Shown here in pieces: positions 126 through 49,015 of a DNA stretch of 64,000 nt. The stretch covers positions 1 to 64,000 of the forward strand of contig JAXLNO010002548.1 of NCBI GenBank assembly GCA_038087875.1, given 5' to 3'. Each line of letters opens with the position of its first letter. The stretch's first letter is position 1. Source of the stretch: Malacoraja senta (Eukaryota). A model generated the notes under the pieces. The model was not told the DNA's origin, ran no database searches, and was given only the letters and a program-made list of their open reading frames with translations. The translations under genes were made by a program, and so were the position numbers.

Positions 126-829
126 ATTCATCTCCAACAACACTGGTCCGGATGGGTCAGTGTCAAGAGCCCTAGCAGGTCTCACCTCTCTGACTATCGA
201 ATTGGCTGAGAACTCTGGAGTAGACAACTCCTGGACTGGGTTTCTAGAATCCTGGTTTGGGAAATGGAAGCACATCTTTACCTCAGCTCTAACATCAGTT
301 GTAGTCATGGTGGTGTTACTGTGTTTGTTCGGATGTTGTATCATTCCCTGCCTACGGGATTGGCTCAGCGATTGATAGAAACAGCCCTGACAAAGAACAG
401 CGCCGCCACCATGATGGCCTTCAGAACACAGTATAACCAACGAGAGGGGGATAGGGAGGCGAAGAAGCTGCTGCTAGCATTAGAAAAGGAGGATATAGTA
501 TAAAACAAAGGTTGCGTAGCAAAAAGAAAAGGGTGGATTGTGAGGAAAGAGTTAACAGACATAGTTGATTTAGACTAGGGATAGAAAAATGGCTTGGGGT
601 GTCAGCAGAAGCCAGACTGCTGGTAAAATAGAAAATAACGATATATAGAACAGAGAGAAATTCTAGATAAAAAGTAGCAAATTCAGCAGAAGATTTGAGA
701 AGTAAGTAGAAAGGGAGAAAGTACATAAGGTCAAACATATCTGTGCATGCCTAATGAACTTACATGAATATGTACACACACCCACTATGACAAGATGCCT
801 AATTTAAATGCACATGCGATGCATGATAT
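126..829 (+). mobile_element. Partial direct repeat of ERV env TM 3' end, PPT and truncated U3 (partial LTR 539-829)
   Basis: Near-identical to ~2657-3360 (offset ~2531). Purine tract AAAAAGAAAAGGGTGGA is followed by TGTGAG; homology stops before the TATA box. Confidence 0.9.
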
Positions 830-1134
830 AGAACTAAAAATTAAAGGATTGCTGGCCCAGAGCCCACCACTGGACTTCCCGATACACTCAGTCAAAGCTG
901 GAGACTGGGTATTAATAAAACGTGGAAAGAAGAAAAGCTGCAACCTAAGTGGACTGGACCCTACCTGGTGTTACTAATCACCGAGACGGCAGTACGAACA
1001 AAAGAGAAAGGGTGGACACACGCAAGTCGAGTTAAGGGTCCTGTGGAGGCCCCACCAGACAATATCAGCCCGTGGACTGTGCGCAAAGGAGAGGAACCAT
1101 TGACTTTAATATTTACCAAGAACCCGCGGGAAAA
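830..1134 (+). pseudogene. pol: ERV family A integrase C-terminal fragment
   Basis: Frameshifted ..VKAGDWVLIK / KLQPKWTGPYLVLLITETAVRTKEKGWTHASRVK, a typical retroviral IN C-terminal domain. Confidence 0.85.
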
Positions 1135-3035
1135 ATGAAGATTTCGTGTTGGTGGGTCGTGTGTTGGGTGGTTACCCAACTCGTGAGTAATATAACATGC
1201 ATAAAAATCACAATACCACAGAATAGAAGGTCCACCACCATCCCATTTAATGTATGTAAAGGAAAATGGTGGTGTGGCTATAGAATGTATGTATGCACCC
1301 ATCCCTGTAGAAATTGGCACGCGGTGTTCACTTCATCAAGAGATGGGTGGCATCAGCCCACCTATCAAACTGATAGGTGGAAAGTACATCAAAACCCGAA
1401 CGAGAAATTGCCAGGACGTATATATGTGAGCATACAGAGTGTTCAAATGCAGGAAAGTGGTAGGTATTGGATATGTGCAGATAAAACAGGGAAGGACACA
1501 TGTCTGAAGTTTGAGATAGAAGTGAAGCGGGATGGGGAGATGGTAAGATATGAGGATAGGGGAAAGGTGTTGAAGATAGATGACAGTCAGAATAGGGATC
1601 CCGGGGCAACACCAGCACCACCGGTAGTCAGCAAAGTCACCAGGGAGAATGAGTCTAAGGATCTGAATATAATGATAGTAGAAGGAGAAACAGGATTAAT
1701 GCAGTTTTATGAGAAGGGAATACCAACAGGGGAAAAAGGAGCCAACACCTGGCTTGCCTGGATGATGTACACAGCCAGAAGTATGCAATGAACCAATTGT
1801 TACACCTGCGCCGGAGCTAGGTCTCAGCTGGTCCCAGTACCATTTCCCCTGAATTGGAATAGAACACCTAGGGCTATGTCATGTATACTACAGCTATTCA
1901 CGAATCCCCTCTTACCAAAGAATGTGATATGCCAGAATTATCATTACCTATTTCCGACCAGCAACAACAATACGAAGGGCCGAAGGTAAGATCCTCGACC
2001 TCCTCCATTTACCAGTCCTCTTGGGGAGGAGGGGTTTGAGTGCTATACAAGAAATAACCCAGAGGGACAGGACATGGGGAAGGTGCTCAACTGCAATCAG
2101 ACGTATAACATAACGGCTGAGGAACAGGGACCACTGTTCAATAGCTCCTGGCTGAAAAAGCAGATAGTCAGTAGAGCCGATGTCTGGTGGTGGTGCGGGG
2201 AGAATACCCTGTGGCCCCGGTTACCTGGACGTGAACCTGTACCCTCACACAACTGATGATGCCCTTCACCATAGCAGTAGAACATGCTGTAGAACTCAAT
2301 GAAGGAAGCCAACGACAAAAGAGAGGGGTGAAAGGATCATTCGACACACACATATATATAGATGCGATAGGGGTGACAAGAGGGGTACCCGATGAATTCA
2401 AAGCCAGAAACCAGATAGCTGCGGGCTTTGAGTCCATGATCTTCTGGTGGTCCACAATTAATAAAAATGTGGACTGGATCAACTACCTATACTACAATCA
2501 ACAACGCTTTATAAATTACACTCGAGATGCAGTTGAAGGATTAGCGGAACAACTGACAGCTACCAGCCAAATGGCCTGGCAAAATCGCATGGCCTTGGAC
2601 ATGCTACTGGCTGAGAAGGGAGGGGTATGTGTAATGTTTGGCGAACAATGTTGCACATTCATCCCCAACAACACTGCTCCGGATGGGTCAGTGTCAAGAG
2701 CCCTAAGCAGGTCTCACCTCTCTGACTATCGAATTGGCTGAGAACTTTGGAATAGACAACTCCTGGACTGGGTTTCTAGACTCCTGGTTTGGGAAATGGA
2801 AGTACATCTTTACCTCAGCTCTAACATCAGTTGTAGTCATGGTGGGGTTACTGTGTTTGTTCGGATGTTGTATCATTCCCTGCGTACGGGGATTGGCTCA
2901 GCGATTGATAGAAACAGCCCTGACAAAGAACAGCGCCGCCACCATGATGCTTTCAGAACACAGTATAACCAACGAGAGGGGGATAGGGAGGCAAAGAAGC
3001 TGCTGCTAGCATTAGAAAAGGAAGATATAGTATAA
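1135..3035 (+). pseudogene. env: ERV family A env (gamma/epsilon-type), disrupted by stops and frameshifts
   Basis: Signal peptide MKISCWWVVCWVVTQL; SU NTWLAWMMYTA..CYTC (CxxC); furin site RQKR (~2310); ISD WQNRMALDMLLAEKGGVC; CX6CC; hydrophobic anchor. Stop at 1789-1791 plus later lesions. Confidence 0.92.
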
Positions 3036-3071
3036 ATCAAAGGTTGCGTAGCAAAAAAGAAAAGGGTGGAT

Positions 3072-3627
3072 TGTGAGGAAAGAGTTAACAGACATAGTTG
3101 ATTTAGACTAGGGATAGAAAAATGGCTTGGGGTGTCAGCAGAAGCCAGACTGCTGGTAAAATAGAAAATAACGATATATAGAACAGAGAGAAATTCTAGA
3201 TAAAAAGTAGCAAATTCAGCAGAAGATTTGAGAAGTAAGTAGAAAGGGAGAAAGTACATAAGGTCAAACATATCTGTGCATGCCTAATGAACTTACATGA
3301 ATATGTACACACACCCACTATGACAAGATGTCTCATTTAAATGCACATGCGATGCATGATATGGGAGGTGTCTTTGACGTTGGGTGGACGTTCCAGGACG
3401 TTCTCGTGGGAATGTGGGCTTTATGTTATGATTGGAAGAAGCACAATGGGGAGGGATGAGGGTGTGACAATGATACCCATGAAATTTATAAAGATAGAAG
3501 TCATCCCGATCCTCGGTGTGCCTCCAGGGGACATCAGAGGAGGCACCTATTCTGCAGAATATGATTTAAATAAAAAGCTTCTTTGCCGACTTTGTCTCTA
3601 AAAGCGTTTGTGATTTTGCATCTCACA
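3072..3627 (+). mobile_element. 3' LTR, U3 type A
   Basis: TGTGAG...CTCACA inverted termini, PPT immediately upstream, TATAAA at 3487-3492, AATAAA at 3569-3574. Confidence 0.92.
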
Positions 3628-45399: not shown

Positions 45400-46845
45400 A
45401 ATTGTGGAAAAATCGAGGCTTCCTGACCTCATCAGGAACAGTTATTTCACACCAGAAGTTAGTTTCCAACCTTTTACAGGCAATCCAATTGCCCAGTCAG
45501 CTTGCAGTTATTATAGTTCGTGCCCACACATCAGGCCAGAGCCCTATAGATATCGGCAATCGCCTTGCGGATGGTGCCGCTAAAAAAAGCTTCTTGGACT
45601 AACCAGGTTGTTGTGCCCCGAATGATGAGGCAGACTAAAAATTCCAGTAAGAATCAGTCTCCCCCGGAAAAAGGAATGCCAACCATCCAGGAAGTACTTC
45701 AAATACAGGAGGATGCTCCTGCACAGGTAAAACAGCTGTGGCAGGACCAGGGCTGTGTGTTTGATCCTGTCACTAGCTTATGGGTTACGCCTGCAGGCCA
45801 GACTTGCATGTCTGATGAACTTGTGTTATGGATTATTGAATGTGTACACTTTGCAACTCATTGTGGTGCCAAGGCCGGAAATGATATGCTTTTAGACACC
45901 TGGTGGCATCCAAAACTTCTGGACTTGGCCCAGCGTGTCAGCCAGCAATGTCTGATTTGCCAGCAGCATAATCCAGGTAAAGGCTTGCCCTGTGAACCAG
46001 GTAAGATCCCTTTACCAGCAGGTCCATTTGAGACCTTGCAAATGGACTACATTGAGTTGAAAAGGTGTCAGTGTTATAAGTATGTTCTTGTAATTGTCGA
46101 TGTTTTCAGTAAATGGATTGATGCATACCTGACCACTGACAATAAGGCGTCTACCATTGTAAAAATATTGTTACGCGAAATCATACCGCGATTCGTTGTT
46201 CCTGCGCGTTTAAGTTCCGATAAAGGTCCTCATTTTATTGCTGCAGTAAACAAAGAAATGTGCCAACAATTACAGATACATCAACAGCTCCATTGTGCAT
46301 ATAGACCTCAGGCCGCCGGATTCGTGGAACGGGCAAATCAGACTTTGTAAACCAAATTAGCTAAATTAGTGGCACAGACTGGCTTAACATGGTTTAAACT
46401 GCTTCCTGTAGCTCTTTTTCAGATACAGACCACTCCTTCTGGTACGGCACGACTGACGCCTGCGGAAATAATATATGGTCGACCTTTACGGATGCCATGG
46501 AATGACCAGGCGGTCCATTTCCATGCCCCCGCAGCGGTCCATTTCTACCAGATGACTGAGGAAATGACATCCTATGTATTAACTTTAACCCGTGCTTTGC
46601 GAACTTCTCATTCACAGGTCAGGGCTGCAAATGGTGAGGCGCCAGCACTCAAAGTTCCATTTAATATTGAGACATGTTGCTATGTGCTGGTCGGGAACTG
46701 GAAGCGTAAGCACTTGGACTCATGTTAGGATGGTCCCTTCCAGGTCCTCCTCACCACTCCAACCGCTGCCAAGGTCGAGGGTCGTGCTGCATGGGTTCAT
46801 CTGCACCACTGCAAACTGATTGGGGAGCCCAATCATAAGGGGTGA
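45400..46845 (+). pseudogene. pol: ERV family B pol 3' end (RNase H C-terminus plus integrase)
   Basis: GNRLADGAAKK; HHCC zinc finger (HFATH..CLIC); LQMDY, SSDKG, VERANQTL (DDE); [18 protein letters not shown]. Stop at 46348-46350. Confidence 0.9.
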
Positions 46846-47121
46846 GAAGAGTCATTTTATTTTCAACTCAGAGTTTTTAGTTTTTACATTGCTGCTTTGC
46901 TTGGGAGTTGTATCATTATAAGTTTAGTTGTATCATTATACGTTTAGTTGTAGCATTATAAGTTTAGTTTTGAATCCTTATTTTGCTATATGGTTAAGAA
47001 TATGTGACTGATAACTGGACTGACTGACTGAAGGATGGTTAACTTGAGTGAATAGTTGATTAAGTCAATTAAGTAAGAAATGAACTTTTTGTAACCCTTT
47101 GCATTTTCCAGATATATTCAA

Positions 47122-49015
47122 ATGAGGCGATTTTTCCTGCCATGCAACCTAATGCTTCTGCAGACAGGGGGAAATAAAGGAGAGATTCGACGATGTGTCC
47201 CAGGACACGCATATAGGATATTTCACCTCTGCAAAGGAGATGTTGTACAATGTAGAGGCCCAGAAGTCCTCGTAAGACGGAACATAAATAAATTAACTAC
47301 TGCCATGGCAAAATGCAACAGACTAACTGAAGCCTCTACCTAATTGATCAGTCACTCTGCGAGTTTCCATGTGGGTACCGGATATGCAGGGTTGACTTAT
47401 CTTGCAGGAGGAACCCCGGGGAGGACCGAACTCTAAATAAACACTTGTATGATGGACTATGTTATCAAGTAGCATTACAGGTCCACCCGGGGCTCCAAAG
47501 GACAGAACCTGAACAACAAATACGGGAAAAGGGAGAATTTGAAGAAAAAGTCACTAACGTATTTATACGGACCCATAATGAATTATTTGGTAAAGGGCAA
47601 GTTGTGTGTTACCCCGCTATGAAATCTGTTATTAGCCTATTTACAGTATCTCCTGAGTGGGGAAGGATTTAACGATTAGTAAAGTGTCAAGATGAGATGC
47701 CAGTTCCGGTCAAAGCTGTCACCATCTATTATGACGAGTTCTTAGCCCCACCAGCTAACTGTTTGCCATTACCTGGCGACAATAAGCATTCATACCCAAG
47801 CTGTCAAAACTCTTCGGGTACCAGAGTAGAACCACTAATGCCGTGTAACTTTACCCCTAACACCGACAATAGACAATACGGATGATGCTTCACTAACCAG
47901 GGATACGGGTGCATAGTTGTTGACGTCCCTTCCAACATTACGTGCATAGTACGAACCCCACGACAACCTAGTTGCAACAGCACATCTAAGGGCATCCAAT
48001 GCACCATTCCCAAATGATGCGTCCCAGTCTCTGCAGGGTTTCAACTGCTTTGTGGGTGGGCCAATGGAACCCATCTAACTGTAGGATTCTATCACTTGCC
48101 CATCCCAAGATACACCAATTGGATTTCAAGCAATTGGATGGACTGGGCAAAGGGTGGCAAGGTGATTAATACACGCATGGACTGTCATGGGTCCATATAC
48201 ACCGAGGAAGGGTATTACTTCTTTTTCAATGGCAAAGGGACCAATGTGCTAAAACCTCCTTTTCCAAAGAACGTAGCCATCGGGATCCTTGTCCCCACCA
48301 CCGTTCCCTGCCCAGAGAGTTGGTCCCTACAAAACCAAAGGACTCTGCGCAGGGCAATATCCGCCGAATTCTGTGCCAATTGGAGAAACCCAACTACAAT
48401 GGGAACATCTAGGTGGGATGCTGCGGGATGGGGAGTACTAAGCCTGCTTACTTTCAGAGGTGTAGGGGGAGGGTTGGCAGCAAAACATCGAAACTATATG
48501 ATTTGTGGACTAACCATTTTGGCAAATGCCACTATATGATTTGTGGGCAAACCATTTTGGGAAATGCCACTACTGGCGCCTTGGAGGCAATAAAAACCCA
48601 ACTATCAGAAATGCATCTGTTCTCTTTACAGAATAGATATGCCTTAGATTATCTGTTGGCCCGTGAGGGAGGGACGTGTGCTATTGTAAAAGATAAATAT
48701 ATGATGGGAGTTCAGGATAGAACTAGTAATATCACCAAACATCAAGAGGACATTACTACCCTGCTTGATGGAATGAAGGAGGGTGTTGGATGGGGAAACT
48801 GGGGTTTTGGGGGATTATATAATTGGATCATCAGCATGGCCATAAATGCAGCAATAGTGATCATGTGTTTGTTAGTGGGAATTGCTATTGTTAAATGTAT
48901 CATCACCAGACTAATGACAGCCTTGGGTAATGTGGAAACTGGTGGGCAGGTCTTATTGCAGCACCTAGAAGAAGACATTACGATGTTGGAGTCTGATGGA
49001 AGTAGAGACGTGTGA
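47122..49015 (+). pseudogene. env: ERV family B env, frameshifted
   Basis: Splice acceptor at 47095-47111 before the ATG; basic cleavage site RTLRR; LQNRYALDYLLAREGGTC ISD; hydrophobic anchor WIISMAINAAIVIMCLLVGIAIV. Confidence 0.82.

Follow-up and report, generated by a model that had tools for sequence, protein, structure and literature searches.

A compact domain of predicted IgV fold at the N-terminus of Env in a Malacoraja senta endogenous retrovirus, a probable member of the RBD-C family

Receptor-binding domains of the RBD-C family

The core of the EnvP(b)1 receptor-binding domain (RBD) resembles a V-type Ig fold (McCarthy 2020, PMC7683403; PDB 6W5Y), and an IgV topology has been assigned to the RBDs of MLV and EnvP(b)1, in a comparison that also took in FeLV (IgStrand 2025, PMC12051499). 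Classes of RBD-C, the transfer of RBDs and the capture of a SIRP-like domain are described by Hötzel 2024 (bioRxiv 10.1101/2024.03.17.585361), where the descent of RBD-C from a vertebrate IgV gene is given as not known, structure and sequence being too divergent, and the donor as unidentified. The same text defines a tetrad of residues (Tyr119, Trp144, Trp154 and Asp217 in MLV) around the Cys121-Cys141 pair, which packs in three dimensions with a hydrogen bond between Tyr and Asp and is no general feature of IgV domains. None of the terms CD300, pIgR, polymeric, CMRF or TREM occurs in the main text of that preprint (its supplementary Env list, which may hold similar fish Envs, lies outside this statement), and a literature search, with subscription journals outside its coverage, found no paper tying RBD-C to CD300/pIgR. 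The accessible text of the Chen 2021 preprint on anamniote Env names neither V-set nor RBD. The entry mechanism of MLV and FeLV has been reviewed by Hogan and Johnson 2023 (PMC9967133), and related work includes Hötzel 2021, Bai 2021, PMC10072453 and PMC13709493.

The domain considered here belongs to the Env of an endogenous retrovirus (ERV) found in a stretch of 64,000 nucleotides of Malacoraja senta DNA (contig JAXLNO010002548.1, positions 1 to 64,000; hereafter, the window). Like the RBDs of EnvP(b)1 and ZFERV, which are RBD-C of the Pb(1) type, it lies at the N-terminus of SU ahead of a linker and CXXC, and it shares with them an IgV topology (in its case predicted) lacking the canonical B-F disulfide, the Tyr/Trp/Asp tetrad residues and a Cys pair between strands C and C'. 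Where the Env body of the window family can be aligned with primate EnvP(b), the two are 41-45% identical. In contrast, the window domain has 109 aa, as compared to about 140-160 in the EnvP(b)1/ZFERV type, and a C-C' loop of 3 residues, as compared to about 8-29 in the Pb(1) type; it shows no disulfide-closed loop before strand E and carries an extra, putative F-G Cys pair, and among the matches listed its model fits host V domains ahead of 6W5Y. An IgV-like RBD with no discernible VRA or VRB is also known in the Fc type of RBD-C, from which the window domain differs, as compared by the description in Hötzel 2024, in the presence of the tetrad. The SIRP-like RBD-C of Env-Dbi offers a precedent for the capture of a host IgV domain as a retroviral RBD. 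As described in the same preprint, Env-Dbi is a recent mammalian capture with the canonical B-F disulfide in an alpha-like Env without CXXC, whereas in the window family the host link is old and faint and the Env is of gamma type, with CXXC. On the host side, the domain shares with CD300lf (1ZOX), CD300a (2Q87) and pIgR (1XED/5F1S) the predicted fold (Z 10.2-10.6, rmsd about 2.6), a Tyr-x-Cys on strand C with a partner Cys to which it would be bonded, a D/E-x-G-x-Y on strand F and an Asp in the FG loop, but it lacks their canonical B-F disulfide, C-strand Trp and V-set match, and is encoded in an intronless env frame.

The locus and the predicted fold of the domain

The copy in the window is only a fragment of a provirus, and its env is disrupted downstream of the domain (Table 1). 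Provirus parts other than the 3' end of integrase, env and the 3' LTR are missing at this locus. Within an open frame (1036-1791), the Met at the Env start is followed by a hydrophobic leader, the domain and a Pro-containing linker. A first-pass annotation had quoted a series of motifs directly after the signal peptide, and all of them are in frame within the domain, the leader being a by-eye reading. It had also described a Pro-rich linker followed by an ordinary fish-ERV SU/TM, a description supported by the CXXC, the furin site, the immunosuppressive domain, the CX6CC and the TLV_coat match; these gamma-type Env marks are present, disrupted in the window and intact in natural copies.

The upstream duplicate is a direct one and abuts the integrase 3' end, so that truncated proviral parts stand in tandem. 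The same ERV family has left further pieces on the minus strand of the window at 27.2-29.0 kb, 32.8-33.2 kb and 61.1-62.3 kb, as LTR fragments and an internally deleted copy without most of the Ig-like domain. A second, different ERV occupies positions 45550-49015; it has an integrase (rve E 6e-18), and its TM matches TLV_coat (E 1.7e-6) but shows no clear CX6CC.

Table 1. Features of the provirus fragment, in positions of the window
Feature	Position	Strand	Remarks
Upstream duplicate covering the 3' end of env and some of the LTR	126..829	+	97.5% to 2657-3362
3' end of pol (integrase C-terminal domain)	830..1138	+	MLVIN_C E 4.3e-6; 91% to other copies
Env start and putative signal peptide	1135..1200	+	22-residue hydrophobic leader, by-eye reading
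Compact, putative receptor-binding domain of Env, predicted IgV fold, very probable RBD-C type	1201..1527	+	109 aa, open frame
C-C' motif Tyr30-x-Cys32, Cys36-x-x-Trp39	1288..1317	+	Tetrad residues a and b and conserved RBD-C Cys pair, by alignment
F strand and FG loop	1459..1503	+	Gly-x-Tyr; Ile at the canonical Cys place; Cys92/Cys101 (putative pair); Gly97-x-Asp99 (tetrad residue d)
Linker with proline-rich stretch	1528..1668 (boundaries approximate)	+	pN/pS 0.60 among copies
SU C-domain, broken	1669..2324	+	Compared with natural open copy; stops 1789-1791 and 1987-1989, frameshift near 2235; CXXC 1798-1809; furin site 2313-2324
TM, broken by frameshifts	2325..3035	+	TLV_coat E 2e-9; immunosuppressive domain and CX6CC 2628-2654
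3' LTR	3072..3627	+	Matches both terminal repeats of copy L037

At least 150 matches to the domain, 73-100% identical, occur in the genome (G000; 150 scored out of 374 candidates), and open frames of at least 650 codons hold, by our own count, 14 of the 150. The first-pass annotation had proposed to look for intact env copies carrying the domain, and such copies exist elsewhere in this genome, a single open frame running from the leader through the domain and SU to TM; one natural locus has Gag p30, RT, RNase H and integrase in addition. Because natural copies keep these four parts in a single frame, the domain belongs to Env, as opposed to being a stray exon of the host. Insertion of a host exon after integration was likewise ruled out, as the domain is in frame with Env in many copies. 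A word-based search with the domain gave two matches among five candidates, both of them copies of the same family. Four sequencing runs out of 17, perhaps of RNA, were covered and contain related contigs at about 92-95%.

Across 53 copies, pN/pS was 0.49 for the domain, 0.36 for the SU C-domain and 0.26 for TM, values that come from 1378 non-independent pairs and from copies that are no random sample; the copies were picked by their likeness to the domain, which biases the set towards intact domains. The six cysteines of the domain are nearly fixed among them, the tetrad residues and the Cys pair are retained in 52-53 of the 53, and the Tyr30/Cys32/Cys36/Trp39 motif is invariant in the alignment of compact domains. 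The pN/pS values show a trend towards purifying selection and, together with the near-fixed cysteines, fit a folded, used and fairly variable domain.

The env frame stops 131-230 codons from its start, past the domain, in 18 of the 53 copies and at several common points. Such truncated copies (among L001-L037 and L154-L173) could in principle yield a secreted domain, or may be the product of simple decay. FeLIX is an example of such a secreted domain.

An IgV fold is predicted for the domain, in agreement with the fold proposed by the first-pass annotation. In the ESM Atlas, V-set was the first match (0.91, with 183 of 256 features in common), and AlphaFold2, given 22 near-identical copies as input, produced a best model of nine strands with a pLDDT of 82.3, the other four of the five models reaching 41-52 only. 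The top Foldseek rows for this model were TIM-3, CD300lf, pIgR and Fc-mu-R, whereas 6W5Y (best 50), 1LCS and 1AOL were absent among the matches listed, which is no evidence of a difference. With VIA the model gave Z 10.9, rmsd 2.8 and 98 aligned residues, Z values running from 10.9 to 10.2 for TIM-2, CD300lf, NKp44, TREM2, CD300a and pIgR. Antibody VH, TIM, TREM2 and CD300 are tied at Z 10.5-11.1, so that the fold does not single out a donor. A viral fold library returned Ig proteins of large DNA viruses only, with no retroviral RBD among the best 50 matches listed. The proposed Pfam check gave no V-set match to the domain at E ≤ 10, and phmmer of the domain against PDB sequences found nothing significant. 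As had been noted, the B- and F-strand Cys are displaced: judged by sequence, the canonical B-F disulfide is absent, with Ile at the F-strand place in 52 of the 53 copies and a Cys one residue later, and the putative disulfides would be Cys32-Cys36, Cys19-Cys25 and Cys92-Cys101.

Relationship to other viral receptor-binding domains

The window domain very probably belongs to RBD-C. A natural open copy used as query found 531 relatives, the best 120 being gamma-type Envs of sharks, teleosts, frogs and birds plus primate EnvP(b), whose N-terminal domains have a common skeleton. A profile of 25 ordinary RBDs (out of 34 motif-cut domains, nine being omitted for wrong ends or compact type; no compact member is included) scored the window domain at 19.5 bits (P 3e-8), with none of 500 shuffles as high, and a held-out profile of 32 other RBDs scored it at 18.0 bits and its reversed sequence at -2.2. 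Profiles of host exons gave 8.2-9.5 bits for the CD300-like class (1-3 of 500 shuffles), 5.3 for antigen receptors and -0.2 for TIM. In profile-profile comparisons, the domain matched ordinary RBDs with a probability of 94% (E 9e-8 over 99 columns; a score of 45, the best of 60 column shuffles being 24) and host CD300-like exons with 4-5%. Ordinary RBDs lead in turn to the known structures, as 18 non-primate members used as a profile match the RBDs of EnvP(b)1 (6W5Y, E 4e-28) and FeLV (1LCS, E 1e-6), and the model of one ordinary domain (P0032) aligns with 6W5Y at Z 17.0 and rmsd 3.5 over 141 residues, its host matches TREM2, CD300a and CD33 being tied. The homology link of the compact domains to 6W5Y runs via these ordinary-RBD profiles, the direct comparison (without P0014 and P0105) giving E 0.46.

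Other traits point in the same direction. By sequence, the tetrad would consist of Tyr30, Trp39, Trp50 (tentative) and Asp99, with Cys32/Cys36 as the Cys pair. The domain is an independent N-terminal SU domain ahead of a proline-rich linker and a central CXXC, which is the receptor-binding position that the first-pass annotation had assigned to it. Its B-strand Cys is shifted, its C-strand Trp and canonical F Cys are lost and it has Cys-x-x-Trp, as in viral RBDs, and the marks of host V domains (V-set profile match, canonical B-F cysteines, C-strand Trp) are absent. Expanded variable regions VRA, VRB and VRC are absent too (109 aa, C-C' spacing of 3), and the domain is therefore a variant filed under neither the Type-C nor the Pb(1) subtype.

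Two domain trees place it in a starred group with ordinary RBDs (96/83 in the first, 96/81 in the second), and an AU test rejects forcing it together with host CD300a (p 0.013, teleost host members being outside the sample); the phylogeny against host domains that had been proposed thus leaves it among env domains. These trees are built on 94-107 columns, in which long viral branches may attract, and on hosts from one genome (37 and 25 of 81 V exons); 17 of 64 rows were dropped from the second for long branches or near-duplication. The window domain is a compact, loop-less, tetrad-bearing RBD-C, not a private capture by this ERV lineage.

Possible host origin and role of the domain

By sequence profile, CD300/pIgR is the nearest host family, as the first-pass annotation had stated. 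On C5 of the genome, at about 0.67-1.77 Mb (L083-L131), CD300/pIgR-like V exons form a large cluster; in the PDB they are matched best by pIgR and CD300 (identity checked for L103), and they are of two kinds, with C-C' cysteines (27 sampled) and without them (15 sampled). The annotation had read the C-x3-C pair as a CD300-type mark; the paired Cys with Tyr-x-Cys does agree with this, but not the spacing, which is 5-7 residues in 27/27 of the genome's own CD300-like exons and 3 in the window domain. Tyr-x-Cys on strand C occurs in 25/25 and 31/32 RBDs, in 27/42 host cluster exons and in 0/39 other V exons. The FG-loop Asp is found in 21/27 of the Tyr-x-Cys cluster exons, 4/15 of the other cluster exons and 4/4 TIM-like exons; for RBDs, the G-x-D count is circular in the 25-RBD set, where it was a selection rule, and is 17/32 in the held-out set. 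The CD300a class was defined after the sequences were seen, and all 27 of its members are paralogues from a single cluster.

On host V exons, the 25-RBD profile gave a median of 9.7 bits for the CD300-like class as compared to 4 or less for other V classes, a lead that is almost gone with the held-out profile (medians of 6.5 bits for CD300, 6.2 for TIM and 5.3 for PreB-like). The ordinary-RBD profile matched the CD300-like profile with a probability of 89% over 53 columns in strands D-G, as compared to 0.4-3% for TIM, antigen receptors and butyrophilin-like exons, and among 177,635 PDB sequences CD300LF/CLM-1 made up five of the six non-viral rows of the 18-RBD profile (best E 0.15). Six compact or host-like env domains together match first pIgR (E 2e-13, its repeated domains being added up) and CD300lf (1e-6), whereas without P0014 and P0105 the PDB matches are not significant (scFv first at 0.043, CD300LF E 0.065, 6W5Y E 0.46). 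The domain is about 18% identical to CD300lf, no close host exon appeared among the 150 scored domain matches in the genome, and a word-based search with an env-domain query (A2) gave six matches, all env, and no host proteins. The CD300 signal is modest, and a donor of RBD-C of the CD300/pIgR type is somewhat favoured.

Two other host-like env domains bear on this point. In that of P0105, the cysteines on strands B and F are at their canonical places and the C-strand Trp is present. That of P0014 still has its F Cys and exceeds the Pfam V-set cut-off (E 5.6e-7; P0105/P0126 give 0.004 and 0.008), but its B-strand Cys is shifted as in RBD-C. The canonical F Cys is lost in the window family, and long loops are added in Pb(1)-type domains. 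In the ESM Atlas the P0105 domain scored 0.75, an uninformative value. P0014 and P0105/P0126 are gamma-type Envs in separate parts of the TM tree (58 rows, drawn from P0005 and 120 matches). The second domain tree, built with a mixture model, unites the 22 env domains on one side (98/92), where P0105 comes first, then P0014, then the compact and last the elaborated forms, joined among CD300/TIM-like exons and apart from antigen receptors; the first domain tree has the same order, with a weakly supported base. An AU test does not reject P0105 inside host CD300 (p 0.20). P0014 and P0105 were also considered as separate captures, which was not accepted as proven, since one tree groups both with all env domains and the AU test does not decide. 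The mismatch between TM tree and domain trees fits the RBD transfers described in Hötzel 2024. What is new here, the compact form plus two more host-like env domains, suggests a graded series towards CD300/pIgR.

Some side observations were made in these searches. When the genome was searched with the P0014 domain, the 12 candidates included weak host V exons only and no env resembling P0014, and a scan of viral contigs with P0014 gave one locus, an env with an ordinary RBD. The Env of P0234 has a V-set domain (E 1.5e-4) that looks different, possibly a separate capture, and that precedes a long Thr-rich stalk; in the Env of P0159, the V-set match is weak and partial (E 0.0018). Seven loci (L053, L054, L058, L064-L066 and L082) are immunoglobulin light-chain exons with V and J joined in the genome; germline-joined light-chain V-J is a trait of cartilaginous fish.

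The first-pass annotation had proposed that the window ERV lineage itself captured a host CD300/pIgR domain, apart from ordinary retroviral RBDs, and this now seems very improbable. The Foldseek rows headed by TIM-3, CD300lf and pIgR with 6W5Y outside the best 50, the host-like F-G stretch and the SIRP-like precedent (Hötzel 2024) would agree with it. However, viral RBD profiles score the domain above host exons and grouping with host CD300a is rejected, results by which a private recent capture was ruled out; the domain shares the viral traits listed above, and the genome search gave no close host exon. Alignment with ordinary RBDs of fish, frogs, birds and primates, better than with host CD300 exons, goes against capture by this lineage, yet an IgV fold is predicted and an affinity to CD300 is kept. 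Any capture, if real, would be ancient and common to EnvP(b)1 and FeLV, and not an event of the window ERV lineage.

A different reading, unlikely but less so, is that the variable loops were lost late from an EnvP(b)-like ancestor, the host likeness being partly convergence and the donor not narrower than CD300/TREM/TIM/Siglec V domains. The TM tree puts the window family beside the EnvP(b) group (support 83 only) and AU tests do not reject the domain held with that group (p 0.06 and 0.13), which leaves room for secondary loop loss; a loop-less Fc type is already described (Hötzel 2024), V families are tied in structure scores and the CD300 lead is weak on the held-out profile. Nevertheless, compact forms fall outside the starred group of elaborated RBDs in both domain trees (97/92 and 96/93), short C-x3-C loops occur in envs of separate parts of the TM tree (P0023, P0027, P0014 and P0105), and Tyr-x-Cys plus the FG-loop Asp are common with CD300-like exons in either direction of change. 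With regard to function, it is rather improbable that a CD300-like ligand (IgM, phosphatidylserine or another lipid) was retained and that the domain, which truncated copies might secrete, serves as an immune decoy or a general aid to attachment instead of binding an entry receptor. CD300a binds PS/PE and CD300f ceramide and sphingomyelin (PMC12570474), newly acquired RBDs have been proposed to start as generic attachment aids (Hötzel 2024), and in the 18 truncated copies no more than about 100 codons separate the domain from the end of the frame. Against these points, the identity to CD300lf is low, a pN/pS near 0.5 equally fits a variable receptor-facing domain, and the truncation points vary among copies and look like decay spread by duplication.

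The preferred explanation, which taken as a whole appears reasonably likely, is that of an RBD-C member of predicted IgV fold without long variable loops, with a likely role in attachment and a likely origin in an old capture of CD300/pIgR type. The attachment role, based on analogy, is probable. By comparison with MLV and FeLV (PMC9967133; Hötzel 2024), the domain would sit at the tip of SU on the proline-rich linker as its tether and bind a receptor on the cell surface; this would set off isomerisation of the SU-TM disulfide by CXXC and then fusion driven by TM. As for its origin, a single ancient capture of a CD300/pIgR-type V exon would have given rise to RBD-C, which would later have spread between env lineages by recombination, and the least changed descendants of that capture would include the window family as well as the P0014 and P0105 env domains. 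Whether the compact state was retained and not regained is evenly balanced. Slightly more doubtful, the window family, P0014 and P0105 may preserve intermediate steps (a B-strand Cys that shifts, a B-F disulfide that disappears, variable loops that grow), which would put a name to the donor left open by Hötzel 2024 and make the tetrad Tyr and Asp inherited CD300 residues.

As a single-lineage curiosity the finding would not be new, because IgV-like RBDs and one host IgV capture are already published. The question stated by Hötzel, that of a host origin of RBD-C, is now directly testable, with CD300/pIgR as a named candidate and compact fish env domains that narrow the gap. If the proposal is true, an immune receptor of the host was turned into the module for attachment in a group of viruses that extends from fish to leukaemia viruses and to a human co-opted Env.
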